A DNA stretch of 64,000 nucleotides from a virus (IMGVR_UViG_3300029171_000002:1-64000), one strand, 5' to 3'; positions 34,032-63,173 are shown, counted from the stretch's first letter. The notes: generated from the letters alone by a model not told the origin. Numbers and translations are program-made.

Positions 34032-34745
34032 TCAGTCGCCGCCACGAATACAACGCTTGCCCATTGGAATTGGCTCGGGTACTGGCTCTGCTGGCTGCTC
34101 TGTGACAGTCCAACTTTCAAGTGCTGGCATCACGTAATAAGGTTGCCAGCCAGGAAAAACCGCTGACGTGACAGCCGCAGTGCGCATTGACTCTGGTGTG
34201 TCCCTGTGGCCACCGCCAAGCATTGGAGTAGATTCTATCCCAGTTAACCGAAACGACTGGCGTGGATTACCAACTTGAAGGTTGGAGGCGAACAGGATCT
34301 GTCCTTCTGGCATATTCGGATCAGTGACAACCGGCATGCCTGCCAATGCTCCACTCAATGCGTCCATCTCATCTGAGGATGGAACAACCAATGTAGGCCG
34401 GTCAGCTGCTATCCAACGTGCGCCAAAATCTTCAGGCCTCAACGCAACCGCGTCGCGATAGAGCGCATGTATCTGTTCTGCTGTTATCGCTGGCTGTTCT
34501 GGTCTCGCAGTAGCCACGGTCGCGGGAGGACCCTCAGATGTAACCGTATGAGTCACGGTCACCAAGTCACCACTGGCAAGATCGACTCCTGCCGGAAACT
34601 CTTGACGGTCAATCAGAGTCCCCAGAGACCATTCGCCTTCGACTGGTGGTTGATAAGAGAATATTGGCTCTCTGCCGAGATCTCCGAACGAGTAAGTGCG
34701 TCTGGCTCGACTCCTCTCTCTTGGTTCACGATTGCGCCTGCTCAT
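34032..34745 (-). CDS. Hypothetical protein ending in IPMGKRCIRGGD
   Basis: 237 aa; ATGA overlap; C-terminal motif. Confidence 0.65.
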   Translation of the reverse strand: MSRRNREPRERSRARRTYSFGDLGREPIFSYQPPVEGEWSLGTLIDRQEFPAGVDLASGDLVTVTHTVTSEGPPATVATARPEQPAITAEQIHALYRDAVALRPEDFGARWIAADRPTLVVPSSDEMDALSGALAGMPVVTDPNMPEGQILFASNLQVGNPRQSFRLTGIESTPMLGGGHRDTPESMRTAAVTSAVFPGWQPYYVMPALESWTVTEQPAEPVPEPIPMGKRCIRGGD

Positions 34746-35164
34746 CTCACGGTCACCTTGACATGCTGAGACCCAATAGTTTCCTTCAACACGGTCCCAC
34801 CGTGCTCATCGGCCACTTCATAAATAGCCGTCACGAAGTAGTGATAGGTTCTGACAGCCTTAAAACTTGTAGAGCCGTGAATTGTTTGTGTTGTTGAATC
34901 CACAAAGCAATCAGCCAGTATCATCTTCGGGATAAAAGGGTCATAGAACCCTTCCTGCGTCTGAGACCTGCGAACCCTAAAGTATCGGAACTGGTCACTG
35001 TATGGAGTCTCCCAGCACAGCTTAACATCTTCCCCCACCGCCTTTGCCAACTCAGAGGCTCCGTCAGCACCCACACACATACGGGCATCAGCACTTGTCT
35101 GTGCCATGACAAAGCCTCCAAAGAATACCAACAACAGCAGGAGAAAATAGAGGATCCAAGACAT
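34742..35164 (-). CDS. Signal peptide/TM + FN3-like domain
   Basis: MSWILYFLLLLLVFFGG; LCWE...FRVRRS...YHYFVTAIY. Confidence 0.6.
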   Translation of the reverse strand: MSWILYFLLLLLVFFGGFVMAQTSADARMCVGADGASELAKAVGEDVKLCWETPYSDQFRYFRVRRSQTQEGFYDPFIPKMILADCFVDSTTQTIHGSTSFKAVRTYHYFVTAIYEVADEHGGTVLKETIGSQHVKVTVR

Positions 35165-35619
35165 TACGCTTCAGGCTCTTGGATCTCGCTAACTTCCACT
35201 TTAACGATCGTGGCCTTGCTCAAATCGGGACCAGTGAAATCCAGCAGAGCAACGATGGGTTCTACGCCGGATCCAAGATCCGCATCGGCTTGGAACACGA
35301 TTTGACCGATCCCTTCATCCAGACAGGTGAGCTTCCCTTCCCGTGTAACCTGATCGAAGGCGACTCCGCCTGCGATTTCATTCGAATTCGTGATCGTGAT
35401 ATCGCCGTCAATCTTTGCATCCCGGCCTTTGACATCCTCGATCTTCAGTTTGAAAGTGACAAACTGTCCCAACTTTGTGAAAGCTGCCATGACTTTTTCT
35501 CCTTTTACTGTGATGTTGTTGATGGTGACGACGACGAACAGACGAGCTTGAGGCTTCTTCTTGTGAATGATTTTGACGATGAAGTCGGATTGCGGTTCCA
35601 GATCAAGACAAAGAGTCAC
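35164..35619 (-). CDS. Small Ig-like beta-sandwich protein
   Basis: Beta-strand pattern, GIGQIVFQADADLG. Confidence 0.55.
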   Translation of the reverse strand: MTLCLDLEPQSDFIVKIIHKKKPQARLFVVVTINNITVKGEKVMAAFTKLGQFVTFKLKIEDVKGRDAKIDGDITITNSNEIAGGVAFDQVTREGKLTCLDEGIGQIVFQADADLGSGVEPIVALLDFTGPDLSKATIVKVEVSEIQEPEA

Positions 35620-35685
35620 GATGAACCTCCTGAATGGAACCTAGCAGTAACTGGCACAAAGTTCAACCACTGTGTTGTTAAATCT

Positions 35686-36090
35686 TCAGCCACGGATGCA
35701 ACGCTTGTTCATTGGGATGAATTCTGGGGTGAACTTAGGCGACGCATATCCATAGGTAATCGCTGGTGTCCCTAGATTGTAGGTGACTGAATGGCCATAT
35801 TCTAAGGACCACTGGCTTGAAGCCACTTCTACTGCAAGATTGCGGTTATGATTGAATCCCATTACAGTCACAAAGAAACCACCAATATTTTCATCATAAA
35901 TTTCCGGACACTCAAAAGTTACATCTATCTGAGTTCTTGCTGGTTCTCCACCGCGATAGGCTGTCGGACATTCATAGACATAGGCCATTCTTGGGGTACG
36001 TGTGCCGTCTGGATGCAAAAGATTTTGGTGTACCGTGACCCTGTAAAAGTCCGCGCCCTGCAGAGGTTCCCAACTCGCTCGGACCCTCAC
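35686..36090 (-). CDS. FN3-like protein ending in IPMNKRCIRG
   Basis: ASWEPLQGADFYRV...FFVTVMGFN; GTGA overlap. Confidence 0.6.
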   Translation of the reverse strand: MRVRASWEPLQGADFYRVTVHQNLLHPDGTRTPRMAYVYECPTAYRGGEPARTQIDVTFECPEIYDENIGGFFVTVMGFNHNRNLAVEVASSQWSLEYGHSVTYNLGTPAITYGYASPKFTPEFIPMNKRCIRG

Positions 36091-36761
36091 GCATCACCGC
36101 CTCGAATCGCACGGCGTCCACTTGGGATAGACTTCTTGGCCGCAGCTTCGGCCGCTGGTTGGTTCGCTTGGCTATAGAGTCCTCGACCTACCCATGGTTG
36201 AGAGATAGTAAACCACTCTCCGGGAGCAAGGTTTCTGATTTGCCTAATTTCTTCCTCCCGTTGTGCTCGATGCTCCTCTGGAGTTACGCTGAAACCTACA
36301 GGCTGAGCAATCGACTCCGTGGTTGTGACTTCAACGGTTAGGGGTGTCGGAGCAATTATCCTCAGTGATTCCTCTTCAGTCGCAGGCCTCCAAGTTTGCG
36401 TTTGGTGATTCCAGAACCATAATCTTTCACCGCGAGCGGCCTGAGATTCAACGGGGCTGTTTAGATTGAATCGATAGCGTTCGTTACCAGCGTAATCGGA
36501 ATGGCCATAAGGGGAGTTCGATCCGGGCAATCCAGCCATCGGCATCTCTTGTGGTGGCTGATCCCTGAAGGCCTGAATTTGGTACTTGCTTATGAGATAG
36601 GCTGAAGAGCAATTCATGGAAAAGATTATCCCGCTGGTGACAATCTTGAGCCATAACGGGAGATTCATGCTGATCGCTTTATTGATTCCAATCGCAGCAA
36701 AAACGCCACACGCCATCAGGAGAGCTACTGTAATAATCAGGTTCTTGGTCGCTGCGGTCAT
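36087..36761 (-). CDS. Two-TM membrane protein ending in IPSGRRAIRGGDA
   Basis: Start MTAATK at 36761 by ATGA overlap; two hydrophobic helices. Confidence 0.6.
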   Translation of the reverse strand: MTAATKNLIITVALLMACGVFAAIGINKAISMNLPLWLKIVTSGIIFSMNCSSAYLISKYQIQAFRDQPPQEMPMAGLPGSNSPYGHSDYAGNERYRFNLNSPVESQAARGERLWFWNHQTQTWRPATEEESLRIIAPTPLTVEVTTTESIAQPVGFSVTPEEHRAQREEEIRQIRNLAPGEWFTISQPWVGRGLYSQANQPAAEAAAKKSIPSGRRAIRGGDA

Positions 36762-37417
36762 GGCATCTTCTCGTTCGGCGCAAACTTTCCAGTTTTCTTG
36801 CGGTAGGCGACCATTTGTCGCATCTTGGTTTGATTGTGCCTTCCCCACCAGTATTGTCCGGGAACGCCGTGGTGCGCAAGTCTAATTGGCAGGTACACCC
36901 GATTCCATTGCGACCAACGGGCTTGAAACTCACCGTCCACGCCCCCGGCATGACTCCATTGCTCCGACAACAAGGGCTTGCTGGCAACCGCAGGATCTTG
37001 ACTGTGAAACAGATGAAAATATCCCGGCATCTCGGAATGCTGGGGCCTGACAACCTTGCCGTCGAGGGTTCTGAACGCACCATAGAGACATCCCGAGACA
37101 GGCCCGATTGTCATTACCGTCTCTCGCCAGTTCGGTGGCGGCTCAACGTCAGCATCAAAGAACAGGCACCATTCGGTCTCGTGCCACTGCTCGACACCTT
37201 CATTCATGGCCGCACCTTTGTTGAAACTGGCACCGTTGTGATAGAAGCTGGAGGTTACAAGGAAGGGGATGCGGTGTTTGCGGCAGAGTTGGCGGGTAGC
37301 TTTGTCTTCGAGGTCAGTAACGACTATGAGTTCGTCAAGGGTGTCTTTCCAGATGGAAAGGGAATGGCTGAGTTCTGAGGCGAAGTTGACGCAGGTGGTG
37401 AGACCACTGATTTTCAT
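36758..37417 (-). CDS. GT-A glycosyltransferase (GT2-like)
   Basis: FNKGAAMNEG, WCLFFDADV, GYFHLFH, GVDGEF. Confidence 0.75.
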   Translation of the reverse strand: MKISGLTTCVNFASELSHSLSIWKDTLDELIVVTDLEDKATRQLCRKHRIPFLVTSSFYHNGASFNKGAAMNEGVEQWHETEWCLFFDADVEPPPNWRETVMTIGPVSGCLYGAFRTLDGKVVRPQHSEMPGYFHLFHSQDPAVASKPLLSEQWSHAGGVDGEFQARWSQWNRVYLPIRLAHHGVPGQYWWGRHNQTKMRQMVAYRKKTGKFAPNEKMP

Positions 37418-37425
37418 ACATCTGT

Positions 37426-38178
37426 TTAGAATTTTCTCTCACGTTCCATGCGCTTCAAACATTCTCTGGGAGTTTCATTCGGACGCAATGTGTATCCACA
37501 TCCAAGAGTTCCCCCTTTCCACGAGCCAGTACGCTCACCGACTTCATCATTGAATGTCACTTCAATTGCATAAGTGGTAATCCCCCAAGGCAATCGTCTC
37601 AAACGACGAAGTTTTCTTGTGCGGCGTTCAACAAAGATACTCGCTGTTCGCTCTTGAAACTGACCAGAATTTAGCAGATAGCGATACGGGTATACTTCAA
37701 TATGGCGACCATCAGGCTCTTTCAGGATTGGCGTACTACCGTCCCTGGCTCTCGCGAGGGCCATATCATTCTCCCACGTCCCAACATACTTGGACCAGGA
37801 TCCATCGGCCCTTCGTACCTCATGGTTCGTCTGCATCCAATCATGCCAAGGTAGAGTCCAAAGCTTTGTGCGCTTTCCCCAATGCAGATGCCAGCAACCT
37901 TCTCGGAGAGAAGCTCCCCATGATTCCATCATGTCTTCTGGATCGTGGCGATACTTATTCAAGAATGGTAGATCGATGAAACACTGGATCCAAAGCAGAT
38001 TAATCTGGAAAGAGAAGCCCTCTTCAAATAAGCAGATCTCAAGTGCGCAGCCACGAACACCAAGAGACAAAGACCCCCACTTCATTCTAAATGACCCGCG
38101 ATCACTTTTATCTCTCCCGCCAAGCAAGCGCACCATCAAGGGAAGTCTGTCTGGAATTACCACGTCAGAGCCAATCAT
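37426..38178 (-). CDS. Trp-rich hypothetical protein
   Basis: 250 aa, AGGGGAG RBS. Confidence 0.6.
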   Translation of the reverse strand: MIGSDVVIPDRLPLMVRLLGGRDKSDRGSFRMKWGSLSLGVRGCALEICLFEEGFSFQINLLWIQCFIDLPFLNKYRHDPEDMMESWGASLREGCWHLHWGKRTKLWTLPWHDWMQTNHEVRRADGSWSKYVGTWENDMALARARDGSTPILKEPDGRHIEVYPYRYLLNSGQFQERTASIFVERRTRKLRRLRRLPWGITTYAIEVTFNDEVGERTGSWKGGTLGCGYTLRPNETPRECLKRMERERKF

Positions 38179-38190
38179 TGAATTCTCCCC

Positions 38191-39102
38191 TCATACATTG
38201 ATTTCCTTAGACCATCGGCGCATGTAATCCGTCGCTCTCTCAGTGCGGGTTTGATGCAAAGACTCAATCAGCGTAGCTTTCCGGTAAGGCTTGATCTGCA
38301 CTAATTGCTCGTGCGTCTTGCTGTACGTGTCCGTATCGTCCAAGTCCATGCTGCCCTTCAGATTCAACGGCACTCCACAACTCGGACACCAACGTTCGAT
38401 CTGGTTCTCAAATCTCTCTATGCCAGACTTCCACCACTGCGGGTATACCGGGATGCCATTGTCTTCATCATAGAGGATATCAAAAGCAGCCGCAACCTCG
38501 CAGAAGTATCCCTTAGCAACGCCGTTACGCTCGATGATCCCTCCGCTCCAGTCGTTGTTGATCGGACAATTCTTGATGATCGCCCACATGGTTTCACGGT
38601 CGGGGATGTACTCGGAGCCAACGAAGTCTTCGATGGCAGTGAGAATCGGTGAGTGCCAGCTCTGGGTCGTGCCAGATTCTTTGATCGCCTTGCCTGGCAC
38701 CCAGCGTTCAAAGTCGGCAAAGGCTGCGGCATTGCCATGAGCGTTTAGGTTGAAAGTTCCATGAGGGTAAAACGTATCACGCACAACGCTACCATGCTTC
38801 AGCAGGTTGTTTGACCACAAGCCGCGGTGACGTTGATCTGGTATGACTTCGCAGAGGATGGCACAGAGTTCTGGGAACTGTTTGTGAGTGGTTGGGTTAC
38901 CACCGAATACACCCACAATTCCAGGCCAGTCTCTCAGCGACTCGCAGGCTTCACGAAAGCTCGACAGCGAGATGTTGTACTTGTTCCCGCTGTGTGCCAC
39001 GCTCTGAGTGCAATTGCTGCACCGGAGATCGCAGCGCGAGGTCACGATGATCTGGATGTTCTGGTTTCCGCCATTGCGGAGTTTGTCGATGGGAGCCAGC
39101 AT
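38191..39102 (-). CDS. Radical SAM enzyme
   Basis: CDLRCSNC (CxxxCxxC), FGGNP, later Cys cluster (CPI...YFCE...CPSC). Confidence 0.85.
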   Translation of the reverse strand: MLAPIDKLRNGGNQNIQIIVTSRCDLRCSNCTQSVAHSGNKYNISLSSFREACESLRDWPGIVGVFGGNPTTHKQFPELCAILCEVIPDQRHRGLWSNNLLKHGSVVRDTFYPHGTFNLNAHGNAAAFADFERWVPGKAIKESGTTQSWHSPILTAIEDFVGSEYIPDRETMWAIIKNCPINNDWSGGIIERNGVAKGYFCEVAAAFDILYDEDNGIPVYPQWWKSGIERFENQIERWCPSCGVPLNLKGSMDLDDTDTYSKTHEQLVQIKPYRKATLIESLHQTRTERATDYMRRWSKEINV

Positions 39103-39386
39103 TAGAAGGCCTGAGTTGCGGAACAGTTAAGGCAAAAAGTTTCATCCTTCGTTATTCCGAAGGCGATGCCCCCACAATTACAAGTCCACATCAAGCCTCG
39201 TGTTGGACTGCAATGGTAAATGTAGTGGCCCTTCATTGAATGGCACTCACCGCACTCGAACCAGAAGGTTCCCACAGGAGCCACGGCTACCCACTCATGA
39301 CCGCAAGTCATACAGCGAGCCTTCCCCGCATTGTGAGGAGTATCGTTGTTCTCTGGGAAGGCGAGTACCTTTGCGGGTTCATTCAT
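39102..39386 (-). CDS. Small zinc-binding protein
   Basis: Four CxxC/CxC pairs. Confidence 0.6.
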   Translation of the reverse strand: MNEPAKVLAFPENNDTPHNAGKARCMTCGHEWVAVAPVGTFWFECGECHSMKGHYIYHCSPTRGLMWTCNCGGIAFGITKDETFCLNCSATQAF

Positions 39387-41407
39387 TATGGTTCAGGTGT
39401 TATCAAATTCTGAGGATTCACGCTTCCCTTACCGCCAGGGAATGGCTTGCCAGTCCCACCAGGGTTGCCTGCCTGCTGATCGATGGGTGACGGCGGTGTG
39501 TTTGGCTGAGGCGGTGTCATGGCAGCCGCGACATTGATATCGCCCGTAGCAAATAGAGAAGCTAAGGCCGGCACGGCTTGGATCAGAGTCGTGATCACAG
39601 CTTCCCTGAGCGATTGTTCTTTCTCGATCTGAAGCTGCTTCTCTACCTTCTCGATCATCGCTCCCATATCCAGACCATCGTACAAGGTCTTGCGGCTCAT
39701 GTCGCCTTGACGTCGCAATGCCATGTACAGCATTGCCCGTTGATCACGGCTGCTATTCAGCAAAGTGTCTGGGCTGATCTGGAATTTGAACTGTTGGATG
39801 AACTCTTGCGGCTTCATCCCTGAAGGAATCATTGTGTCGGGATTGTAATCAAAGTCCTGTTCAACCGTGCCATCTTCCACGCCAAACATCATGATCCGGC
39901 GCTCAATCGAGTAAAACTGAATGAAGTTCGACACCATCTGCTCGCCAAGCTCTGAGACAGCGTGCTCCATGTAGCGGCCCCGGAGTCGCATGATCGTCTG
40001 CTGCGGTTCTTTCAGCTCAGCTAACGTGTCTCCGGCCGGGGTAATCTTCTTACGCCCAAGATCGGCTACACCCAACAGTCCAGAGTCGTCCTGAATCTGT
40101 TGCTGGGCGTATTCTGCCAACTGTGGGACATAAGAAGGGAGGCTTGGCGGTTGAGACCACGTAGGCACTTGGTTCGACATTCCACCATAACCCAGCTTCA
40201 GGCCCGGCTGGCCCATGTCCGCATTCTTCATAAAGTTTGAGCTGAACTGCTCGCTCTGGTAAAGCAACGTCGGGTTGATCGCCTTCTTCACCATATCCAG
40301 GATCCCGGCCATCACTTCGTTCACAACCTTCTGGAGCGGGACTTTAGACCGAAGCTCACTTACCCCGTGGTACTGCCATGGCACTTGCTTCACTCTCAGA
40401 TCGATGAATGGATATCGGCCGTGCCAGAGATAGTTTGGCCCATCGTCCAAGACGGCAAAGTTCTCACCACCGGTCACGATCAGGCGCCCACGCGGATACA
40501 AAGGTTGGCCTGGATGCACCCAATAGCTCCAATTCGTCTTTTCCTTTCCAACGAATACCGGCTGGTCTGAGACATTAACAGAATCGTCCTGCACCCAGAA
40601 CTGAGTGAAGCGAGCAATCGGAATAGCACTTTGCCGATTCTCAACCTGATTGGTCCCGCCCATGAACCTTCGCATTGCTGGACCAGCGGCATGAAAGGCT
40701 CCCGTAGTCATGTAATTTGGCGTGCCCACCGGAACAGCGTAACTGCTCATCTTCAGGTTCGGCACAACCTTGTAGTACTTTTCTTTGAAGTTGCGCTTGA
40801 ACCACCCCATCGGTTTGTAACAGGTATAGGTCAGGCCTTCCCAATCCTGCAGGCGATGCGTGGCAGGCCCGATCGGCAGCACAGAGTTAATGCCTTCGGC
40901 TGCGCACTGGAAATCACCTTTCCCCCCAAACAGGCGAGGGTTCCAGAAGTAGCGAATAAACCCTGTAGACAGATAGGCATGGGTCAAGGCCATGGCGAAA
41001 TCAAGATCCACGTCTTGATTCACCCACCAGGCTTTTGACATCTTCGTCAGCTTCTCGGCTTGCTGTTTTAGTGTCTGGTTCTGGGTGCCAACCGTGTAGG
41101 CCAAGCGGATATCAGTAAGGACAGCAATCGTCTGCTCCATGCTGCGCAATAGCAGGTTGTTTACCGGAGCCGACTTGTACTTCGGTCTCCCGGTATCCCA
41201 CTGCTTGCCCATCAGTTGATCAATGTATTTCGGGATCTGGTTTGCTTCAGGGCTGGACTTCTGCCAGAGGTCTTGCTCCTCTGCAACTGCATAACACCAA
41301 TCGGTAATTCTCTTTTCGATTGCGGCCGCATCCAGGTTGGGGGTATGGGCCAGCAGGTCATAGGGGTGAGAGGAAGTACTCGTTACTGCTCTGATCTGTG
41401 CATTCAT
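39386..41407 (-). CDS. Portal protein (P22-like)
   Basis: 673 aa; YPRGRLI, PWQYHGVSE, QKVVNEV...MV...INP, Pro-rich tail; between terL and scaffold. Confidence 0.8.
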   Translation of the reverse strand: MNAQIRAVTSTSSHPYDLLAHTPNLDAAAIEKRITDWCYAVAEEQDLWQKSSPEANQIPKYIDQLMGKQWDTGRPKYKSAPVNNLLLRSMEQTIAVLTDIRLAYTVGTQNQTLKQQAEKLTKMSKAWWVNQDVDLDFAMALTHAYLSTGFIRYFWNPRLFGGKGDFQCAAEGINSVLPIGPATHRLQDWEGLTYTCYKPMGWFKRNFKEKYYKVVPNLKMSSYAVPVGTPNYMTTGAFHAAGPAMRRFMGGTNQVENRQSAIPIARFTQFWVQDDSVNVSDQPVFVGKEKTNWSYWVHPGQPLYPRGRLIVTGGENFAVLDDGPNYLWHGRYPFIDLRVKQVPWQYHGVSELRSKVPLQKVVNEVMAGILDMVKKAINPTLLYQSEQFSSNFMKNADMGQPGLKLGYGGMSNQVPTWSQPPSLPSYVPQLAEYAQQQIQDDSGLLGVADLGRKKITPAGDTLAELKEPQQTIMRLRGRYMEHAVSELGEQMVSNFIQFYSIERRIMMFGVEDGTVEQDFDYNPDTMIPSGMKPQEFIQQFKFQISPDTLLNSSRDQRAMLYMALRRQGDMSRKTLYDGLDMGAMIEKVEKQLQIEKEQSLREAVITTLIQAVPALASLFATGDINVAAAMTPPQPNTPPSPIDQQAGNPGGTGKPFPGGKGSVNPQNLITPEP

Positions 41408-43334: not shown

Positions 43335-43817
43335 TTACACCACCCTTTTCACAGGCTTTGTGGTCTCCACGAGGTGGATGATCGGCATCTTGAATGCCTT
43401 GCCTTTGTTCGGGCAGGCTTCTTTCAAAAGCTCCGATTGGTTGTGGGTATGGGTAAATATTCGGGTAAACGAACCCGTGATGGCGTCACCGTCCAACTTC
43501 AGTCCGCACACGGTACAGCGCACCGTTGCCAGCACTTCCACGGCAAGGCCATCGGGAGAGATCGGGGAATCCTTCACAATCGCGTCCAACCGGTCCAATC
43601 GGTTCGAGGCGTTGGCGTAGAGATTCACCATGTTACTGATCTCTTTTTCGAGGCTATTGAGTCGGTCTTCCACTGGCACGACCCGTATTTCTGGCACCGC
43701 TGTCTGTTCTGATAAATCGGTTACTTCAGGAGCAATCTGAACCTCTTCGACCATCGCCATGCGTGGGGCTTCGGCCACGGCTGCCGCAGCTTTAGAGGTA
43801 TTCGTAGTCTGGGACAT
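43335..43817 (-). CDS. Hypothetical protein
   Basis: Start MSQTTN at 43817 (AGAGG RBS); coiled coil and CxxC. Confidence 0.55.
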   Translation of the reverse strand: MSQTTNTSKAAAAVAEAPRMAMVEEVQIAPEVTDLSEQTAVPEIRVVPVEDRLNSLEKEISNMVNLYANASNRLDRLDAIVKDSPISPDGLAVEVLATVRCTVCGLKLDGDAITGSFTRIFTHTHNQSELLKEACPNKGKAFKMPIIHLVETTKPVKRVV

Positions 43818-45783
43818 TTGCTGTTTCCTCTGTGTCATAGATCGGTGAGTAATCGGTGTTGTAGAAGTCTGAGCCGTCACTGGCCTGCTTTTTCGCAATG
43901 GCAACAGTCGGTTCGGTCATTTCACTGATGAGCTTTGGGTCAATGTCCAACATGCAGGCCAACGCAATCATTGCACCAAACAAGCAGTCATCACTTTCAC
44001 CCTCCGGGGCTTCGAAATGGCCAGGCTTTTCAATACTATCTACGAAAGTGAAAAATTCGTCAATGAGACGTTTGCTTTTAACCTGCAATTGGTTCAAGTT
44101 CATCAACGACTTGGTGCGGTCCATGAGAAACTGCCGAGTCTTTTCGTTCGTCTCCCATCCATAATCGTTGGTGACCATGCTGGCCTTTTCGTGTCTGCGC
44201 CTACGGTAGATCTTCGGGTATTTGATCACATGCAGAAGATCCGAAATCACCGTCGTCAGCTTATTACGCTCTGGGCAGACCTCGCAGTTTAGGTAGAGCT
44301 CTCCAAGATTCGCAATCACCCTCGCAAACTGCGTTGGCTCCGTGAGTCCGCGATACTCAGCCACCTGGATATAATCCTCGTCTGGCTTTAACGGCACCCG
44401 CCAGATCGATGCTGCCGACCAGTTACCGCCCTGAATGCCTTGGCCTGGGTCAGCGCCAATGTAGTAAAGGTTCCCATTCTTTGGAAACTCCCAGATCCAG
44501 AGCGGGGATTCATCCATGTCAACCATCCGCTTCAGGCCGGCTTGGGTATCAATTTCTCCGGGAGTCACTATCTTTTTCTTGGTCCGGCCTATATCTCCAA
44601 ACCAGATCGGCTTTCGTACCGTGGCTTTTTCCAGGGCGTAGAGCCGCTTCTTCGGAAAGAACGTCTTGCCAGGGGCTCGGAAAGCAGCTTCTGGATAGGA
44701 AGGATACTCCTGCTCGAACAGATCGGTATCTTTCCCGGCATCCTCCATGATCATCTGGGTTTGCCGTCTGAAGTTCAGTTGCTCGTGCGTTAGATCGAAG
44801 TCGTATTCGTCTTTGACCTTGCCTTTCAGTTCAATCTCTTCTTCGGTTAAGCGGAAATTCGCCTTCGCTTCTTCGTTCTTGAACGGCCTCGAGTAGCGTT
44901 TCTCCTTCCACCAGGCGGCAAACACGGGCCGAAACATGTCGTACCTTCCGGTCTTGATGCTCTTCCAGAAGTCGGCAAAGAATGTGTTCTTGCCCTCAGC
45001 GGTGCCTTCAATCACGAACATGGACAATGGGTGATCGATGTTCGTCAATGTTGCCGGCATGATATCCAGGGTCAACACGTTTGGCTTGATGTAGCGGCTG
45101 ATCTCAGAAGCGTGAACACAATGAAACGTCATGCCGCGGCCAACACCTGAAAGCTTGTTGGCGGCATCGCAAATCAGAGTGCTTTTCAGGCCCGGATTCG
45201 TCTTTCTGAGCTCAGCGTCTTTTCGGTCAAACTTGATGTGGGTGTCTTTGACGTCATACTGCATTTCCGGCTGCATCCAGTACGGCAAGCTGTCGTAAGC
45301 CAGCTTCGACATATTGAACAGCCAGGCCGATCTTGGTTTCTCATCGGCAAGGGTCAGCGAGGTAATGAACCGGTTGAAAACGGTGTTGTGGAAGAGGATG
45401 CCCTGAACTATGGTCGACCAACCGATCTGCCGACATTTCAGCAGTATCCACCACAGCGGAAGTTTGTTGGTTCTGCAGAAGACAAAGTCTTCCCATAGCC
45501 ATTCCTGTGGTTCGTTGAATTGTAGGGTAGTTAGATTGGGGGCTGCGTCAAAACTCTCTGTCTTGGCGGCAGCGTTAATGACGTGGTAGTTCTCAAGGTA
45601 ATAACGAACACTCTTGTGATCGTTACCTTGACAGCGACGGATCTCTTCTTCGATGACTGCGTAATCGGCGGGAGAAAGTGCGGCAAAGACTTTGGCGGGA
45701 TCGTTATTCGCTTCCTCCAAGCGACGATCCATCGCCTCCACCAGTTCCGCAACATGGGGGGACTTCCTGGAGATCTGATCCAT
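43792..45783 (-). CDS. terL: Terminase large subunit
   Basis: LKCRQIGWST (Walker A), HASE (Walker B), EGTAEG coupling motif, IGADPGQG and SDDCL nuclease acids. Confidence 0.9.
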   Translation of the reverse strand: MDQISRKSPHVAELVEAMDRRLEEANNDPAKVFAALSPADYAVIEEEIRRCQGNDHKSVRYYLENYHVINAAAKTESFDAAPNLTTLQFNEPQEWLWEDFVFCRTNKLPLWWILLKCRQIGWSTIVQGILFHNTVFNRFITSLTLADEKPRSAWLFNMSKLAYDSLPYWMQPEMQYDVKDTHIKFDRKDAELRKTNPGLKSTLICDAANKLSGVGRGMTFHCVHASEISRYIKPNVLTLDIMPATLTNIDHPLSMFVIEGTAEGKNTFFADFWKSIKTGRYDMFRPVFAAWWKEKRYSRPFKNEEAKANFRLTEEEIELKGKVKDEYDFDLTHEQLNFRRQTQMIMEDAGKDTDLFEQEYPSYPEAAFRAPGKTFFPKKRLYALEKATVRKPIWFGDIGRTKKKIVTPGEIDTQAGLKRMVDMDESPLWIWEFPKNGNLYYIGADPGQGIQGGNWSAASIWRVPLKPDEDYIQVAEYRGLTEPTQFARVIANLGELYLNCEVCPERNKLTTVISDLLHVIKYPKIYRRRRHEKASMVTNDYGWETNEKTRQFLMDRTKSLMNLNQLQVKSKRLIDEFFTFVDSIEKPGHFEAPEGESDDCLFGAMIALACMLDIDPKLISEMTEPTVAIAKKQASDGSDFYNTDYSPIYDTEETANVPDYEYL

Positions 45784-46649: not shown

Positions 46650-47084
46650 TCAGAAACTTGGTTCTTGCGGTTCAAGATCAGCAACTAACCATTGGTTCTC
46701 ACCATCCCTGAATTTCTTGAAACACTCCAAGGCTCGCCTTCCCTCACGAACAGATCCATGATACATCTGACAGATTTCTGCTGGAGTGAATTTCAAGCTA
46801 AGTGGAATTGGAAATCCATTGAACCATAGCCAGCCTGGACGCATATCTGTTCTTTCAATAAGCAGCAGCGCACCTTTTGCGGCATCATCAATAGTCCCAC
46901 CACCCTTATTAAAATCAAAGTGCCAGACTCCACAAGGGTCTTGTGTCACCTTAAAACGAACCCAACAACCGCAGTCAAGCTTAAAAGTCACTTCATTTTC
47001 AGATCTCCATTCAAAGATCAGGCCTTCACCTTTAACGAGAGAGGCTGCGCCAAACCCACATCCCCTTATGGCTCTGCGGCTCAT
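46650..47084 (-). CDS. Hypothetical protein starting MSRRAIRG
   Basis: GAGGA RBS, ATGA overlap. Confidence 0.6.
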   Translation of the reverse strand: MSRRAIRGCGFGAASLVKGEGLIFEWRSENEVTFKLDCGCWVRFKVTQDPCGVWHFDFNKGGGTIDDAAKGALLLIERTDMRPGWLWFNGFPIPLSLKFTPAEICQMYHGSVREGRRALECFKKFRDGENQWLVADLEPQEPSF

Positions 47085-47764: not shown

Positions 47765-48019
47765 TTATCTGTACTGCGCAGGCATTTCCGATCTTAAATG
47801 CCCACATCGAGAACACTGCCACGGATTCACCCATGCGACTCGACCAAAATACATCACATCGCGAAACACCCAATGATGGCCAAGAATAAAGCAAGTCATG
47901 CCCGGAGAGAGCTTGAACATGCCCAAGCGGACCTTGTCCAAAAAGCTGAACGATGGTTCGGCAATCGCTTCCGTGCCACGACTTTCTTCAGGTTGAGGAC
48001 CACCACGAATACATCGCAT
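47765..48019 (-). CDS. Small protein starting MRCIRGG with CxxxGH...CxRC zinc motif
   Basis: CFILGHHW...CSRCG. Confidence 0.55.
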   Translation of the reverse strand: MRCIRGGPQPEESRGTEAIAEPSFSFLDKVRLGMFKLSPGMTCFILGHHWVFRDVMYFGRVAWVNPWQCSRCGHLRSEMPAQYR

Positions 48020-48378: not shown

Positions 48379-48615
48379 TTACTCAACCGTACCAGTTTCG
48401 TTAGCTAGCGTATGTCCAAACTCGTCGGAAGCCACGATGTTGCATATTGACCCTCCAGGAAGGGCTATCTCGACGGGAGGTTTTTCGGCTAGCATGATCA
48501 GAACACCGTTACAGAATATTCGGTATGTATCAGCATCCGGCACTAGATCCCAATCCAACCTGTACAACTTAAGCTTTGGGATATTGTCCGGGTTTCGTAT
48601 CGCTCGGCGAGGCAT
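48379..48615 (-). CDS. FN3-like mini-protein starting MPRRAIRN
   Basis: LDWDLVPDADTYRIF...IVASDEFG. Confidence 0.55.
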   Translation of the reverse strand: MPRRAIRNPDNIPKLKLYRLDWDLVPDADTYRIFCNGVLIMLAEKPPVEIALPGGSICNIVASDEFGHTLANETGTVE

Positions 48616-50574: not shown

Positions 50575-50904
50575 ATGGCACGAAGAGCAATCAGGGGTGG
50601 GGAGAAACCGCTACCGCAGTGGGCAGCAGATAGTCTGAATACTGTTAGCGTCGAGCTCCGGGGAGATCCGCTTGGAGGTTACTTCCTGAGTCGTCCAACA
50701 CATCTGATTAGGCCAAATGGAGATGTTGCTATCACTTTCGTGGTCTCGGGACTGGTTCCCGGAGATAGGGTTGTAGGCTATGTGTTGTCGTTCTATAGCG
50801 AAACGCTTGGTCGTCAGAAAAACGAAGGCTATCTTGTGCCACCGCTGGAAGCGGACGAGGAGTACAAGGAGTACGAAATTACGGTTGATCTGAGGGTGCG
50901 ATGA
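50575..50904 (+). CDS. First rightward gene, starts MARRAIRGG
   Basis: 109 aa beta-rich. Confidence 0.65.
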   Translation: MARRAIRGGEKPLPQWAADSLNTVSVELRGDPLGGYFLSRPTHLIRPNGDVAITFVVSGLVPGDRVVGYVLSFYSETLGRQKNEGYLVPPLEADEEYKEYEITVDLRVR

Positions 50905-51245
50905 CTCGGCGTGCGATCCGTGGCGGCACAGAAAATTACCTTAAACTCGTGGTCCTGCCGAGCCTGAAGTCTGGGTTGATCCTTTTGGATTCTTCTTTTA
51001 CCGGAAAGCAATTCAAGGAATGGCGCAAAGGTGGGCGTGAGGTCAATATGACGGAGAACGAGCTTCGCATCACCGACTATTTTGACATCCGTGGCGCCTA
51101 CCCCGTTCCGAACGTTCTGGGAGCCTGGTATCAGTATCAGCAGGCAACGATTGTGGGCTTGGGGAATCACTACAATTTCAGCACGGTTGAACCTGCCAAG
51201 CAGGATCCGCTCTTGCTCTGCACGAGGTATGTGATTAAGGGATAG
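50901..51245 (+). CDS. Hypothetical protein starting MTRRAIRGG
   Basis: ATGA overlap. Confidence 0.65.
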   Translation: MTRRAIRGGTENYLKLVVLPSLKSGLILLDSSFTGKQFKEWRKGGREVNMTENELRITDYFDIRGAYPVPNVLGAWYQYQQATIVGLGNHYNFSTVEPAKQDPLLLCTRYVIKG

Positions 51246-53631: not shown

Positions 53632-54063
53632 ATGCGAGCAATCAGAGGCGTCAACCTCGACGGGAAAATAGTTTGGATGTTGGACTATTGCAAACGCAAT
53701 GGTGCGCAACTTTCCCTTCAGGGTGAATGTGGATTCTGGAGACCCTGTGTTGGCATTCTTGTCAACGGTCTCTACCCAGACTATGAGTGGTGGGACAAGG
53801 ATTACAGTAATCAACTCGACAAGAATGGTGAGGTCTGGAAGCCGAGAAGTGCTTATCACAAACACCCATGCGTGGCAGTTCTCGGACACGATGAGGACTC
53901 TATAAATCAGCTTTGGTTGTGGCTGCAATGGTTTGAAGACAATGGATTCAAGATCGAAGTTGGTGGAATTGACATCGAGCCAAAGCATGCTCTTTTCCAC
54001 GGCTTGATGGGGACTGACAAGTTTGCGCGGATGGTTAGAGGTAGCAGTGAACTTTCACAATAA
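53632..54063 (+). CDS. Hypothetical protein starting MRAIRG
   Basis: GECGF...CVGI...YHKHPCVAV. Confidence 0.6.
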   Translation: MRAIRGVNLDGKIVWMLDYCKRNGAQLSLQGECGFWRPCVGILVNGLYPDYEWWDKDYSNQLDKNGEVWKPRSAYHKHPCVAVLGHDEDSINQLWLWLQWFEDNGFKIEVGGIDIEPKHALFHGLMGTDKFARMVRGSSELSQ

Positions 54064-54074: not shown

Positions 54075-54323
54075 ATGGCTCAAACAGGCGAAATGGCAGT
54101 ACTGGACAGGACCGGGGACACGAAAACCACATGGGACAGAAACAATGCGGACGAAGTCAGCTTCGCACGTAAGCAATTCGATGACTTCAAAAAGAAAGGA
54201 TTTGCCGCCTTCAGTGTGACCAAGAAGGGGGATAAGGACGAACAGATTTCTGATTTTGATCCTGCGGCAGAGCGCATCATTTTTGTCCCACAAATCAAAG
54301 GGGGTGCGCTTGGCTACGATTGA
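54075..54323 (+). CDS. Small protein with ThiS/ubiquitin-like IIFVPQIKGG near the C-terminus
   Basis: AAGGAGG RBS; GG followed by 5 extra residues. Confidence 0.65.
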   Translation: MAQTGEMAVLDRTGDTKTTWDRNNADEVSFARKQFDDFKKKGFAAFSVTKKGDKDEQISDFDPAAERIIFVPQIKGGALGYD

Positions 54324-55008
54324 GATCACTGGATCAGCAGGGGCAGGAGTTTGGAGGTATTGGTGTGAGACCTCCACCGCCACGGCCTATTATGCTGGCA
54401 CGTCGAATTATGTTGGCCCATGGGAGTATTGGTGTTCTGGAGGTACATCCACAACCCCTACAAGCACAATCACCGACACGATCTACAAGGCGTGGGTCAT
54501 TAAGTCTTCTGAGGATGAGGGTTCTGCTTATGCCAGCCAGATTCGCCCAAAGCAGTCCCACATTGAATCCGAGGCCGACAGAACGGCACGTCTTCAGCGA
54601 GAACAGGCCAACAGGCAGGCAGCAGAGCTGCAGCGTCTCAACGAACTCGCTCGGCGTGAAGCCGCTGTCAAAGAACGCGAAGCGGCTGTGGCAAAGGCTG
54701 AAAGACTTCTTCTTGAAACACTGAAAGAAGAGCAGCGCAAGCAGTACCAGAAAGATCGTCATTTTGACGTGATCACCAAGGATGGCAAGCGCAGGTATCG
54801 CATCCACCACGGCAGTTCAGGGAATGTGAAGCTCTTGAACGAGAAAGGTCACAGCGTCAAGAGCTACTGCATTCACGCCGTGGATCAAGGCATTCCGAAC
54901 GAAGACAATATGTTGTTGCAGAAGCTTCTGATTGAGCATGACGAAGAGAGGTTCTTGAAGACGGCCAATATCTCGAATGTCCACCAGCCCGAACAAAGAA
55001 CCGCGTAA
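54310..55008 (+). CDS. Trp/Thr-rich N-terminus + coiled coil + conserved-looking YCIH domain
   Basis: TTG start after GGGGG; RYRI...YCIH...DNMLLQKL. Confidence 0.6.
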   Translation: MATIEITGSAGAGVWRYWCETSTATAYYAGTSNYVGPWEYWCSGGTSTTPTSTITDTIYKAWVIKSSEDEGSAYASQIRPKQSHIESEADRTARLQREQANRQAAELQRLNELARREAAVKEREAAVAKAERLLLETLKEEQRKQYQKDRHFDVITKDGKRRYRIHHGSSGNVKLLNEKGHSVKSYCIHAVDQGIPNEDNMLLQKLLIEHDEERFLKTANISNVHQPEQRTA

Positions 55009-55861: not shown

Positions 55862-55936
55862 GCCGAGATAACTCAGAGGTAGAGTGCTGGCCTGAAAAAC
55901 CAGTGGTCGCCAGTTCAATTCTGGCTCTCGGCACCA
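55862..55936 (+). tRNA. tRNA-Phe(GAA), CCA encoded
   Basis: GCCGAGA...ACTC/GAGT, CTGGC-CTGAAAA-ACCAG, GCCAG-TTCAATT-CTGGC, TCTCGGC-A-CCA. Confidence 0.9.
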
Positions 55937-59234: not shown

Positions 59235-59261
59235 ACTACGATCACGACAAGGAGAAAATCA

Positions 59262-59489: not shown

Positions 59490-59538
59490 CAGGTTCTCAT
59501 CCCGGTGCAATCACGGCCGGGATGAGGGTATTTCAAAA

Positions 59539-59646
59539 ATGATCCCAGCCATCATCGTCCTCTGTCTGTTCGTCGTCGCTGCGTTTGCAGCTTTGGTTTA
59601 CGTTGGCTGGCAGATTGTAAAGGATTTTAAGGAGAATTTTAGATGA
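59539..59646 (+). CDS. 35-aa single-TM peptide
   Basis: GAGGG RBS, hydrophobic, ATGA overlap. Confidence 0.45.
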   Translation: MIPAIIVLCLFVVAAFAALVYVGWQIVKDFKENFR

Positions 59647-60005: not shown

Positions 60006-60010
60006 TCCAA

Positions 60011-60469
60011 GTGATCACCACCTTCTTCGTCGATGGCAAGTCTGCACCCAAGGGGAGTACATTTTCTTTCAAAAACAAGAAAGGGAAGATCATCACGATG
60101 CAGGAGGGATCCAAAAAACTCTACGCATGGCAGGACGCAATTGGGTATGTCGCCAAGCAGAATGGAGTTCAGGTCTCGGATGGGGCTATCCATCTGAAGC
60201 TCAACTTTTTCATGCTGCCGCCGAATAAGTCCAAGTACTGGTTTCCACCACGGCCGGATTTGGACAAGCTTTGTAGGAGTTGTCTCGATGCGCTTTCGGG
60301 TGTGGCATACGCCGACGATTTTCAAGTAGTTTCAATTCAAGCAACTAAGCAGTACTCGACTCATCGGTCTGGAGTAGCAATCACTATTCAAACCATCACG
60401 GAGGAAGAGTTATGGCAAGAACGAGAAAAGCCGCCAAGCCAGGCGGGCCTGAACCTAAGTATGTCCTGA
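60011..60469 (+). CDS. rusA: RusA-family Holliday junction resolvase
   Basis: PDLDKL...LDALSG...DDFQVV. Confidence 0.85.
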   Translation: MITTFFVDGKSAPKGSTFSFKNKKGKIITMQEGSKKLYAWQDAIGYVAKQNGVQVSDGAIHLKLNFFMLPPNKSKYWFPPRPDLDKLCRSCLDALSGVAYADDFQVVSIQATKQYSTHRSGVAITIQTITEEELWQEREKPPSQAGLNLSMS

Positions 60470-60954
60470 TCAACGCAATATCCCCCAAGGGCCAGGAAGT
60501 TCTCAATCTGATGCTTGCCCTCATAAATGAGAATCACGAAGAACTTGTCAATGCCAACATCATTCCGGCATGGATGATGGGCAACAAGGAAGACAAAGAC
60601 GGACATTTGATCTTGGGCAAGATGAAGAAAGCCAGTGAGCTCGAACGCGAAGCTCACGGAGCTGATGGATTCCTGCTCTTGAATCATGAGGCATGGGAAG
60701 TGTTTGACATCAACCAGCGCAGGGCTTTGGTCGATCACGAGCTTGAACACTTGGCGTTAAGTTTTGACGCGGAAACCGCAGAACCGAAGCGTGACGGGCA
60801 CGACAAACTAGTGTATCGTTTGCGGAAACACGATGTTGAAGAGTTCCAGTGCATCATCAGACGACACGGTTGCTGGAAGGACGATCTCCGGAAGTTCGCT
60901 GAGGATGCGCTGAAGGCGGATAAACAAAAGAATCTCGCTCTCACCGCAGGGTGA
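60412..60954 (+). CDS. Phage metallopeptidase (HExxH)
   Basis: ALVDHELEH...HDVEEF. Confidence 0.8.
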   Translation: MARTRKAAKPGGPEPKYVLINAISPKGQEVLNLMLALINENHEELVNANIIPAWMMGNKEDKDGHLILGKMKKASELEREAHGADGFLLLNHEAWEVFDINQRRALVDHELEHLALSFDAETAEPKRDGHDKLVYRLRKHDVEEFQCIIRRHGCWKDDLRKFAEDALKADKQKNLALTAG

Positions 60955-61029
60955 GCTCCGGCAGGTTCGTCGGTCACAGGGAACGCACCCTCTCTCTGCA
61001 CGGGCCTGCTGGATGCCAGAAAGGACATC

Positions 61030-61806
61030 GTGGAATTCACGCTTGAAGAAGCAGAAGCAGCAACCATCCTTCGTGGCGTCGTCGGATCTACCGTTCACGG
61101 GCTTCAGGTCAGTGATGGCGTCGATGATACTGATGAGATGGCAGTAACTGTCGAACCATTCAACCGCGTTGTCGGGTTCCAAGAGTTTGAACAACATATT
61201 TTTAGGACAGCCGCTGTCAGAGAAGGAAAGCAGGATGCCCGATCAAAGTCAGGAGATCTGGACTTGGTGATCTACTCTCTCAGAAAGTATCTCCGGCTGG
61301 CACTGAAGGGGAATCCGACTATTCTTAATCTGCTGTTCATCAAGCATCCATTCGTAACTAAGATGACACCGCCTGGTGAGCAATTACAGAAGCTCCATCC
61401 CTACATCATCAGTCGAAAGGCCGGTGGTGCGTTTCTTGGCTATCTCACGGCGCAGAGACAGCGGATTAATGGTGAGGGTGGGCAGAAAGGCGTGCGGCGT
61501 CTAGATCTCGAAGAGAGATACGGCTTTGATGTGAAATATGCCATGCACATGCTCAGGCTTGGATTTGAAGGCGTGGAGTTAATGAGTACTGGGAACCTCA
61601 CTCTCCCAATGCGTGAACCCGAGAGGTCGTACCTTTTGGATGTGCGCACAGGCAAAGTGTCGCTACAGGATTGCCTCACTCGTGCCGGCGAATTGGAACG
61701 CGAGTTGAAAGATCTATGGGATAGCTCGCCATTACCAAAAGAGCCAAATCAAGGAATGGTCGAAAGTTGGATGATGAACGCCTACCGTGAAATGTGGGGA
61801 TTTTGA
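61030..61806 (+). CDS. DNA pol beta-superfamily nucleotidyltransferase (RlaP/YcgL-like)
   Basis: VGSTVHGL...DDTD, GNPTIL..LF, KYAMHMLRL. Confidence 0.8.
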   Translation: MEFTLEEAEAATILRGVVGSTVHGLQVSDGVDDTDEMAVTVEPFNRVVGFQEFEQHIFRTAAVREGKQDARSKSGDLDLVIYSLRKYLRLALKGNPTILNLLFIKHPFVTKMTPPGEQLQKLHPYIISRKAGGAFLGYLTAQRQRINGEGGQKGVRRLDLEERYGFDVKYAMHMLRLGFEGVELMSTGNLTLPMREPERSYLLDVRTGKVSLQDCLTRAGELERELKDLWDSSPLPKEPNQGMVESWMMNAYREMWGF

Positions 61807-62525
61807 TGAGAACAAAACTGAACTGCCTCAGCTATTGGTATCCGAAGATCGAACCGGTTGTGCCAACTCCCAAGACGGTCATCCTGCGAACCGATCTTGA
61901 GTTGTTGCGAATCTACGACTTTGAAGAGAAGAAAGACGAAGCGACGATGGAGAAGTGGCGTCTCTTTCTTGAAGAAATGAAGTCTGCAGCCAAACCATTT
62001 GGAACACCTTTCTTTCTCAGAACCGGTCAAGGCTCTGGCAAGCATGGATGGAAAGACAACTGCTTCGTCCAAGACGTTGAGAAGATTGGAGACCACATTT
62101 TGAGTCTTGTCGAGTGGTCTGAATGCGTGGACATATTTGGACTTCCATCTGACGTTTGGGTGATTCGTGAATTCCTTCAGCTTCAGGCGCCGTTTTCATT
62201 ACCAGGCTACGGCGACATGCCGATCGCAAAGGAGTTTCGATGCTTCGTTGACGAGGACAAGATCCGCTGCATTCATCCGTACTGGCCAGAGAATGCTATT
62301 GAGCATGGACGCCCGCCGGGACACTGGAAAGTACATTACGAAGACCTACTTGTCTTGAATGATTGGGATGAAAATAAGGTAAGAGATTTGGCCAGCAAGT
62401 GCGGCAAGGCTCTTGGTGGCTCGTGGAGCGTCGATATCTGCGTTACGCTGGCTGGAGAGTGGGTTGTCACGGATTGTGCTGTTGCCGAGAATTCATGGCA
62501 TTGGCCGGAGTGTAAGAATAAATGA
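61806..62525 (+). CDS. ATP-grasp protein, R2K/Cdc123-like
   Basis: PFFLRT, WVIREFL, EFRCFV, WSVDI...WVVTD; ATG overlaps upstream TGA. Confidence 0.65.
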   Translation: MRTKLNCLSYWYPKIEPVVPTPKTVILRTDLELLRIYDFEEKKDEATMEKWRLFLEEMKSAAKPFGTPFFLRTGQGSGKHGWKDNCFVQDVEKIGDHILSLVEWSECVDIFGLPSDVWVIREFLQLQAPFSLPGYGDMPIAKEFRCFVDEDKIRCIHPYWPENAIEHGRPPGHWKVHYEDLLVLNDWDENKVRDLASKCGKALGGSWSVDICVTLAGEWVVTDCAVAENSWHWPECKNK

Positions 62526-62731
62526 GCTTCACCTACGACGACGCCATTGCCATCATCCGAGAGATGAAGAACGACCCGCCATCGGAAGAGACTTACCATG
62601 GCAGTGAACGATGGATTTTCAGCTGCTGCAGTGGCGATTGGAAGACGGGTCACAAGATCACTTGCGCTTGGACCAGGGCAAAGCGGATACTGGAAGCATA
62701 CGACGAAGAAAATAAACCTGCGTCTTTATGA
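62522..62731 (+). CDS. Small hypothetical protein
   Basis: CC...H...C, ATGA overlap. Confidence 0.55.
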   Translation: MSFTYDDAIAIIREMKNDPPSEETYHGSERWIFSCCSGDWKTGHKITCAWTRAKRILEAYDEENKPASL

Positions 62732-62837
62732 TCCCACCACCGATCCTACCTCCGGCTAGCCACCGGGAAATCCTGCCAGAAGGTATCCACGCTGTTAACG
62801 GGCCGGAGCGATTCGGCCCAGCCCGCCTGGAGGGAGT

Positions 62838-63173
62838 GTGAGACGCGCTATCAGGGGAGGAGAGTTAAAACTTGGGCCAGGGCTGAGAAAGTTCTGGATG
62901 CGGTACAATGGCGAAATACTCGCCGAGGCTATTGCGAAAGATGAACTTACTTTCGGGGATATAGTCGTTCTTGATGGAGATGGCTATGTGAGAAGAATAA
63001 GAGACGAAGATCCTCCATCCTCCGTTGCTGGACAAGTATACAAGACTAAAGACAGACTAGTGACAGTATGTGTCAGAGGCAACGCTACCGTGGCAACCGC
63101 AGCTCCAGATACTTCAGCACAACCTCTTGACCCTCAACCTTCCGAACCAGAGCGTCAAACTCCTCACGAGTAA
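62838..63173 (+). CDS. Last rightward gene, starts MRRAIRGG
   Basis: GGAGG RBS, GTG start. Confidence 0.6.
   Translation: MRRAIRGGELKLGPGLRKFWMRYNGEILAEAIAKDELTFGDIVVLDGDGYVRRIRDEDPPSSVAGQVYKTKDRLVTVCVRGNATVATAAPDTSAQPLDPQPSEPERQTPHE

Follow-up and report, generated by a model that had tools for sequence, protein, structure and literature searches.

IMGVR_UViG_3300029171_000002 is a 73,342-bp IMG/VR record that derives from an aquatic metagenome and is estimated to be 82% complete; its bases 1–64000, the whole stretch of DNA analyzed here, are referred to as the window. On the basis of a P22/SU10-type portal, SU10-type adaptor proteins, and GP4-type fiber domains, the source is classified as a podophage, which is uncultured. 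Twelve of the roughly 116 proteins encoded by the whole record (about 10% of its genes) share a short terminal peptide, [K/R]-R-[A/C]-I-R-G-(G), which is found at the N terminus of nine of them and at the C terminus of three. The observation of this shared tag is solid, and selection acts on it at the level of the peptide. Ten of the tagged proteins, carriers A–J, are encoded in the window, and the remaining 2 of the 12, carriers K and L, are encoded beyond it in the same record:

34035–34070, minus strand: carrier A, C-terminal tag IPMGKRCIRGGD (open reading frame (ORF) 34032–34745, 237 residues, head operon)
35689–35718, minus strand: carrier B, C-terminal tag IPMNKRCIRG (ORF 35686–36090, 134 residues, head operon)
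36090–36128, minus strand: carrier C, C-terminal tag IPSGRRAIRGGDA (ORF 36087–36848, head operon, predicted membrane helices)
47058–47084, minus strand: carrier D, N-terminal tag MSRRAIRGC (ORF 46650–47084, 144 residues)
47999–48019, minus strand: carrier E, N-terminal tag MRCIRGG (ORF 47765–48019, 84 residues)
48592–48615, minus strand: carrier F, N-terminal tag MPRRAIRN, with N in place of G (ORF 48379–48615, 78 residues)
50575–50601, plus strand: carrier G, N-terminal tag MARRAIRGG (ORF 50575–50904, 109 residues; first gene of the rightward arm)
50901–50927, plus strand: carrier H, N-terminal tag MTRRAIRGG (ORF 50901–51245, 114 residues; the start codon and the stop of G overlap as ATGA)
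53632–53652, plus strand: carrier I, N-terminal tag MRAIRGV (ORF 53632–54063, 143 residues)
62838–62861, plus strand: carrier J, N-terminal tag RRAIRGG after a GTG start (ORF 62838–63173, 111 residues)
start at 71447, minus strand, beyond the window: N-terminal MRRAIRGG, a perfect copy
start at 70354, minus strand, beyond the window: N-terminal MVRKIRGG, a looser copy

The ten copies in the window had been listed in an earlier, sequence-only reading, in which three DNA strings were also quoted; every position and reading frame was verified, the strings are correct, and a six-frame scan of the window places R[AC]IR at these ten sites and nowhere else.

The R, I, and R of the core are invariant in all 12 copies, and the next G is present in 11. 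The second G is missing from four copies (RGC, RN, RGV, and RG-stop), and Pro immediately follows the motif in carriers E, F, and L. All three C-terminal tags are preceded by a Pro-rich spacer ending in I-P (EQPAEPVPEPIP, SPKFTPEFIP, and PAAEAAAKKSIP). Most N-terminal copies continue with G-G and/or Pro, and in five of the nine a Pro lies no more than five residues after the motif. As read from these sequences, the motif has the appearance of a self-contained, tethered peptide, with a free end and the same N-to-C orientation at both ends of the proteins. Such a design is typical of exposed-end signals, including packaging or loading peptides, degrons, and secretion signals, and is less so of a cleavage site defined by GG.

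The motif is approximately 30-fold enriched over shuffled sequence. R[AC]IRG occurs 10 times in the six frames of the 73.3-kb genome; across 200 Markov-1, composition-preserving shuffles the mean is 0.32 and the maximum 3. The N-terminal form, M-x(0–2)-R[AC]IRG, occurs 8 times versus 0.03 expected from the shuffles. Every one of the 12 copies lies in the first 9 residues or in the last 13 of its gene, terminal segments that comprise 11% of coding residues (P about 5e-12 for 12 of 12 inside), and the previously noted restriction to termini, on both strands, thus extends to the whole record. A six-frame scan of the record reveals no internal copy of the tag in any frame.

Codons vary between copies at every position of the tag, with five Arg codons (CGN and AGR) and all three Ile codons in use. 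Comparison of the upstream regions showed no conserved DNA ahead of the copies and no shared promoter-like motif ahead of the tagged genes. Because the codons vary at every position and the flanking DNA is unrelated, it is the peptide that is conserved rather than a DNA or RNA element, and because third-position and CGN/AGR changes leave the peptide unchanged, the peptide is under purifying selection. The proposals that the copies differ at synonymous sites and that they represent neither a DNA repeat nor a ribosome-binding site are therefore both upheld.

The start codons of the carriers are credible. Independent gene callers predicted the exact tag-bearing proteins in JGI and Logan assemblies as well, most carriers have a Shine-Dalgarno-like sequence or a start that overlaps the stop of the preceding gene, and codon-usage scores favor the annotated frame in 9 of the 12 (the scores are neutral for D, E, and J). 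It is very improbable that the copies have no common function and represent remnants of a coding cassette spread by recombination, or starts that were called in error. Duplication of short segments does occur in this genome: carriers A and B share a 13-residue tail, both copies of which keep the Met of the N-terminal form, and since the DNA of this tail is 22/27 identical, it is a recent duplication. However, a constant peptide in the face of synonymous changes implies purifying selection, the starts are backed by the three lines of evidence above, and copies are seen neither off the termini nor in other frames. The further idea that the internal Met codons yield free peptides of 8–10 residues finds no support. 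Among public sequencing runs, DNA of the phage occurs only in the probable source samples, and no RNA runs holding the phage are listed; the contigs in the source samples are 100% identical to the window, so they provide no usable population variation.

The carriers are ORFans of 78–253 residues, and all are singletons at 90% identity. Apart from the tail common to A and B, all-against-all BLASTP detects no similarity between carriers beyond the tag, consistent with the sequence-only description of otherwise unrelated proteins. No carrier matches Pfam or PHROGs, and no homologue of any carrier is present in approximately 1 Mb of related phage DNA. Searches among billions of proteins returned no homologues of carrier K and none of carrier J, for which only repeats in giant proteins matched. 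Two assignments made by eye, B and F as FN3-like and J as a member of the Pfam cement family, found no confirmation in Pfam. By protein-language features, carrier J lies near clusters of phage cement and minor-capsid proteins, which is a lead only and is unconfirmed by Pfam. An ESM Atlas look-up of carrier I was uninformative, and a single-sequence AlphaFold model of carrier J is unusable (predicted local distance difference test (pLDDT) score of 49). Two weak, collinear matches connect carrier A with the C-terminal part of the capsid protein; residues 107–170 of the carrier align with the major capsid protein through the patterns FG..W...... and GQ.LF..NL.V..R..FRLT.I, and by these alignments carrier A could be a capsid-derived minor head protein. 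The carrier A gene is followed by an intergenic region and then a tRNA, and on this arrangement the possibility was rejected that the C-terminal copies precede a gene that is frameshifted or split by an intron.

Related loci were gathered from IMG/VR with a portal profile (80 loci) and by protein look-ups (3 loci), giving 83 loci and 1.06 Mb in all; the portal used as a single-sequence query found no relatives. Core genes are common to these loci and the phage. The sequence-only reading had named related phage genomes as places to look for the motif, and none of the 83 loci contains a terminal copy of the tag. Degenerate DNA patterns for M-x-RRAIRGG and M-RRAIRGG were scanned against IMG/VR and metagenomes, and a pattern for M-RRAIRGGE was scanned against 185k genomes. 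The IMG/VR and 185k-genome scans yielded single, chance-like matches, mostly out of frame or derived from repeats, and no multi-tag contig; among the at least 120 metagenome matches listed, all are chance-like and no contig has several tags. Two matches that were set aside individually are an out-of-frame match inside a real gene (locus L005) and a repetitive extragenic palindromic (REP)-like repeat that reads M-K-R-S-AIRGG (locus L107). A 22-residue tag query of cultured phages gave no match on the tag. Because the tag is absent from the related loci and the collections contain only chance-like matches, it appears to be lineage-specific and, as far as the scanned collections show, private to this phage lineage. 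A conserved 13-codon frame, VREMRRAIRGGA-stop, is present in approximately 25 related IMG/VR viral contigs (L224–L258); its flanks are conserved likewise, so this micro-ORF most likely arises from reading a conserved gene in the wrong frame and is not a copy of the tag.

The genes of the phage are arranged in three blocks. Leftward genes, among them those for the terminase, head, and tail, extend from approximately 50.5 kb to 0; a rightward block devoted to DNA/RNA metabolism occupies 50.5–63.2 kb; and the genes between 63.3 and 73.3 kb again point leftward. Features to which the tag is compared below, and other landmarks, are as follows:

31864–31795 (exon 1, 24 residues) and 30986–30075 (exon 2, residues 25–327), minus strand: split capsid gene
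33586–33660, minus strand: tRNA-Met(CAT)
38191–39102, minus strand: radical S-adenosylmethionine (SAM) enzyme of the head operon, CxxxCxxC at residues 24–31, with a putative link to the tag
39386–41407: portal, P22/SU10-type by family match
43792–45783: large terminase
54075–54323, plus strand: 82-residue beta-grasp-like protein ending in PQIKGG plus ALGYD, with a putative link to the tag through its similar tail
55862–55936, plus strand: tRNA-Phe(GAA)

The capsid gene is interrupted after codon 24 by sequence that contains a 237-residue ORF (30988–31701), and Rfam reports no group I intron at the gathering threshold across the interrupted gene (30075–31864). The tRNA-Met lies approximately 370 bases downstream of the carrier A gene and, by eye, lacks the three anticodon-stem G-C pairs of the initiator. 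The head operon also encodes glycosyltransferases and a strong, untagged match to Acb3, an inhibitor of the cyclic-oligonucleotide-based antiphage signaling system (CBASS), at 37426–38178 on the minus strand (Pfam E 2.5e-43), which is flanked by the radical SAM gene and a glycosyltransferase gene. In the tail region, the genes at 5382–6065 and 17520–18200 (both minus strand) share 63% identity over 204 residues, an internal duplication in which each copy adjoins a different large fiber-like gene.

The tail of the 82-residue protein is reminiscent of the tag, and the I-R-G-G of the tag in turn resembles the L-R-G-G of ubiquitin-like tails. One explanation is that in the tag the phage copies the di-glycine tail of its own ubiquitin-like protein, and that the same putative machinery cuts the tag after G-G and/or ligates it, in which case the three head-operon proteins would be trimmed to ...IRGG and the nine N-terminal carriers would lose a leader of 8–9 residues. 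Sixteen members of the 82-residue protein family were recovered, all with an invariant P-x-[IML]-x-G-G end; 12 of the 16 stop at GG, and one ends in VPQIRGGR. The copy in the window has five extra residues past GG and would need trimming. Its structural model (pLDDT 80) shows the order beta-beta-alpha-beta-beta-beta, and the top-ranked Foldseek matches are to ubiquitin (in E1 complexes) and other beta-grasp domains, at non-significant scores (E 0.04, template modeling score 0.47). Similar to ubiquitin precursors, carriers A and C end in IRGG and one or two further residues. The adenovirus protease recognizes (M/I/L)-X-G-G-X and cuts after G-G, a site that I-x-G-G fits.

Several features of the tag and of the genome are at odds with such processing. 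Cleavage after GG, which the sequence-only reading had raised as a ubiquitin-like possibility, is weakened because GG is missing from 4 of the 12 copies whereas R, I, and R are invariant, and because Pro directly follows the motif in three; a Pro at the P1' position is poorly cut by deubiquitinases. An invariant R, I, R rather than GG fits binding over GG-directed cleavage. Pfam sweeps of 97 proteins detect no E1/ThiF, JAB, C39, or C48/C5 (Ulp/adenain)-type protein, no other cysteine peptidase, and no prohead protease, and the sole protease family in the Pfam and PHROGs sweeps is PF18894, a putative phage metallopeptidase encoded far from the head genes. No carrier is recognizably a beta-grasp protein, nine of the tags are N-terminal, and GG lies near the C terminus only in A and C. 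The likeness of I-K-G-G to I-R-G-G is a real lead, yet it leaves the non-GG copies and the N-terminal majority unexplained, and we regard tail mimicry as unlikely.

The gene for the 82-residue protein belongs to a two-gene module (54075–55008, plus strand) that is conserved in unrelated phages (L018:2692–3776 and L103:10001–10878). The first gene encodes the beta-grasp-like protein of approximately 75–106 residues, and the second, always next to it and overlapping, encodes a protein of approximately 185–281 residues with a conserved C-terminal domain (...YRIH.G..GNV...ANIT). The partner, at 54256–55008 in the window, matches no known family, and no E1 or JAB gene is found near the two-gene modules. 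Both genes occur in other phages that do not have the tag, which counts further against tail mimicry. A broader version, in which the tag is a portable P-x-I-x-G-G tail and the putative machinery, possibly including the partner gene product, trims or ligates any protein that bears it, is more doubtful again. Were it true, the virus would encode a ubiquitin-like system with a dozen non-ubiquitin clients, marked with seven residues at either end.

The radical SAM gene and an adjacent gene for a 94-residue zinc-ribbon protein sit between the portal gene and the C-terminal carriers, and these raise an enzymatic explanation: the tag could be the recognition or modification site of a phage enzyme, one maturase acting on many substrates in the manner of the leaders of ribosomally synthesized and post-translationally modified peptides (RiPPs). 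Candidate enzymes are the radical SAM protein with its zinc-ribbon neighbor, or the products of the metallopeptidase, RlaP, and R2K ATP-grasp genes at 60412–62525. The radical SAM gene is located approximately 1.3 kb upstream of the C-terminal carriers within the head operon, its best, though weak, NCBIfam matches are to peptide maturases (HxsC, the SPASM family, and PqqE), and it is absent from all 83 related loci, as is the tag. In addition, the second core position is occupied by Cys or Ala, and Ile and Arg do not vary; Cys, Ala, Ile, and Arg are residues on which known radical SAM maturases act. Carrier J is encoded directly 3' of the metallopeptidase, RlaP, and ATP-grasp genes. On the other side, enzyme and tag co-occur in just one genome, the radical SAM matches are confined to the generic CxxxCxxC core and score far below the cut-offs of the families, and the glycosyltransferases of the head operon leave room for a role of the enzyme in sugar chemistry. 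No relative of the radical SAM enzyme and no second genome with either the tag or the enzyme was found, and no SPASM domain was recognized in the enzyme. As in RiPP systems, one short terminal peptide is present on many unrelated proteins and a radical SAM gene is present in the same genome; however, the carriers are whole proteins rather than short precursors, and the motif is different. A role as an enzyme substrate is, like tail mimicry, improbable. As a separate observation, the RlaP-type nucleotidyltransferase, R2K ATP-grasp, and PF18894 metallopeptidase genes, together with an RNA ligase gene, are grouped with phage tRNAs (55246–55860 and 60412–62525, plus strand), and this group may be an RNA-repair or protein-modification set.

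Signals recognized by AAA+ (ATPases associated with diverse cellular activities) machines, too, typically must sit at a free end, which may be either terminus. The tag could accordingly be a degron or unfoldase handle, gripped at its end by a host or phage machine of the ClpX, ClpA, or Lon type, so that the carriers would share a limited lifetime. Known ClpX substrates include basic-hydrophobic N-terminal classes and a C-terminal class similar to the RRKKAI of MuA, and most carriers are small accessory proteins distributed over different gene blocks. The tag does not match the sequence of any defined degron class, and a degron accounts poorly for the marking of three head-operon proteins. We place this explanation a little below the two preceding ones, tail mimicry and enzyme substrate.

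The head operon encodes all three C-terminal carriers, with the portal gene on one side of them and the scaffold and capsid genes on the other; the scaffold candidate has 280 residues. The same interval in the relatives encodes several small disordered proteins with basic Ser/Arg ends. Two to five such proteins are present per interval, and their tails are protamine-like (...RINPRGR, ...VRTSGR, ...RKSSRKSGRH, ...RKSARGGSR, and ...TRTSGRG; L017:12063–13303 and 14618–14926, L018:12037–12225, and many of L020–L099). The proteins with these tails are possibly DNA-binding internal head proteins. Because the relatives carry them at this position, basic C-terminal tails on small head-module proteins are ancestral in the group, and they appear to have been standardized here to K-R-C-I-R-G-G, which is also used at N termini elsewhere in the genome. 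These tails bring to mind yet another explanation, in which the tag acts as a nucleic-acid-binding peptide, small and arginine-rich (RGG-like), that tethers the carriers to phage DNA or RNA for joint travel. The motif does contain three to four basic residues and G-G, and the proteins of the relatives at the same position do have Ser/Arg tails, ...RKSSRKSGR being one example. Binding through charge in general would not, however, fix R-x-I-R-G, with its Ile and small residue, over 12 copies, and the basic charge of the tag is low in comparison with the tails of the relatives. Tethering of this kind is quite improbable.

The sequence-only reading had inferred an addressing system. The part of it that stands is a recognition motif at the peptide level, which is supported by synonymous variation, terminal placement, and unrelated carriers; the specific functions that it suggested are candidates. 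It is likely that one partner reads the tag. The explanation that we rank first, ahead of ubiquitin-like tail mimicry and an enzyme substrate, then a degron, nucleic-acid tethering, and lack of function, is that the tag is an uncleaved docking peptide that loads the carriers into the virion, by analogy with the capsid-targeting sequence (CTS) of T4 or the targeting peptides of encapsulins. This explanation is tentative, possible rather than probable. The tag, exposed at the free end of twelve unrelated accessory proteins, would allow a single common receptor to handle all of them as a group. The putative receptor would be a component of the assembling head, or procapsid, such as the scaffold, the portal, or the inner face of the capsid, and the tag would load the small proteins into the particle, probably for delivery with the DNA. 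Uncleaved docking, on a flexible tether, is proposed because no prohead protease was found.

The internal proteins of T4 that carry a CTS include IPI, IPII, IPIII, Alt, and the products of polymorphic internal protein (IP) loci. The internal proteins of T-even phages are diverse defense proteins that share only the capsid-targeting sequence (PMC3012670), a profile that the unrelated ORFan carriers match. In both cases a short N-terminal peptide is the sole feature common to small accessory or anti-defense proteins, here in nine N-terminal copies. The T4 peptide, in contrast, ends in L/I-x-E and is cut by the prohead protease gp21, whereas the tag has no L/I-x-E site and the Pfam and PHROGs sweeps detect no prohead protease; the tag is also used at the C terminus in three copies, and the portal of this podophage is of the P22/SU10 type. 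The T4 peptide addresses proteins to the assembling head, and packaging of the carriers would be the putative counterpart here.

Encapsulin targeting peptides are terminal, approximately 10 residues long, and attached through a flexible linker, and they dock unrelated cargo, uncleaved, inside an HK97-fold shell (PMC11664910). The use of either terminus and the flexible spacer of the tag are consistent with this design, the Pro-rich linkers being a reading of the sequence and not of a structure. Encapsulin peptides bind a pocket on the luminal face of the shell protein. The main differences are that these peptides are rich in Gly and hydrophobic, with those of Family 1 nearly always located at the C terminus and encoded beside the shell gene, whereas the tag is basic, is usually at the N terminus, and is carried in three regions of the genome, and the shell in question would be a DNA-filled virus head. 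The weak capsid matches of carrier A and, as a lead only, the language-feature neighbors of carrier J are also compatible with loading into the virion.

A number of observations weigh against virion loading. Of the nine N-terminal carriers, six (G, H, I, J, K, and L) are encoded on the rightward arm or in the far-right block, outside the head/tail strand run, and G–J sit among DNA/RNA-metabolism genes; for these six, loading into the head would require that they persist until assembly or be made at that time. Carrier C has membrane helices and its neighboring gene encodes a signal peptide, which would be odd for internal head cargo. The tag is found in one genome only.

The tag is a kind of terminal addressing peptide that falls outside every defined family; the definitions of the T4, ubiquitin-like, double-glycine, twin-arginine translocation (Tat), and arbitrium peptides each fail at least one tested feature. 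A double-glycine leader was rejected, the leader of the tag being 7–9 residues instead of 15–30, with no LSxxELxxIxGG and no C39 peptidase or ATP-binding cassette transporter found. A Tat signal consists of S/T-R-R-x-F-L-K, then a hydrophobic h-region and an AxA site; R-R-A-I-R is like its n-region only, and in all carriers the sequence that follows is polar or Pro-rich. Arbitrium AimP peptides, such as SAIRGA of phi3T, are C-terminal hexapeptides of secreted precursors of approximately 40 residues encoded next to the AimR gene. The carriers have 78–253 residues, nine of the tags are N-terminal, and the Pfam sweeps detect no tetratricopeptide repeat receptor; the A-I-R-G likeness is taken as chance. 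A lipobox, a ribosome-binding site, and a downstream box were also considered and rejected.

Approximately 1 gene in 10 of this phage bears the same seven-residue end. If one receptor reads the tag, the tag defines a functional set among ORFans that are otherwise unannotatable, and these proteins would plausibly be host-takeover or anti-defense cargo. Under the same condition, it would also be a very short, portable means of loading foreign proteins into podophage particles, or of entering them into whatever other process recognizes it. It would be the first such tag used at both termini in a tailed phage without a recognizable head protease.

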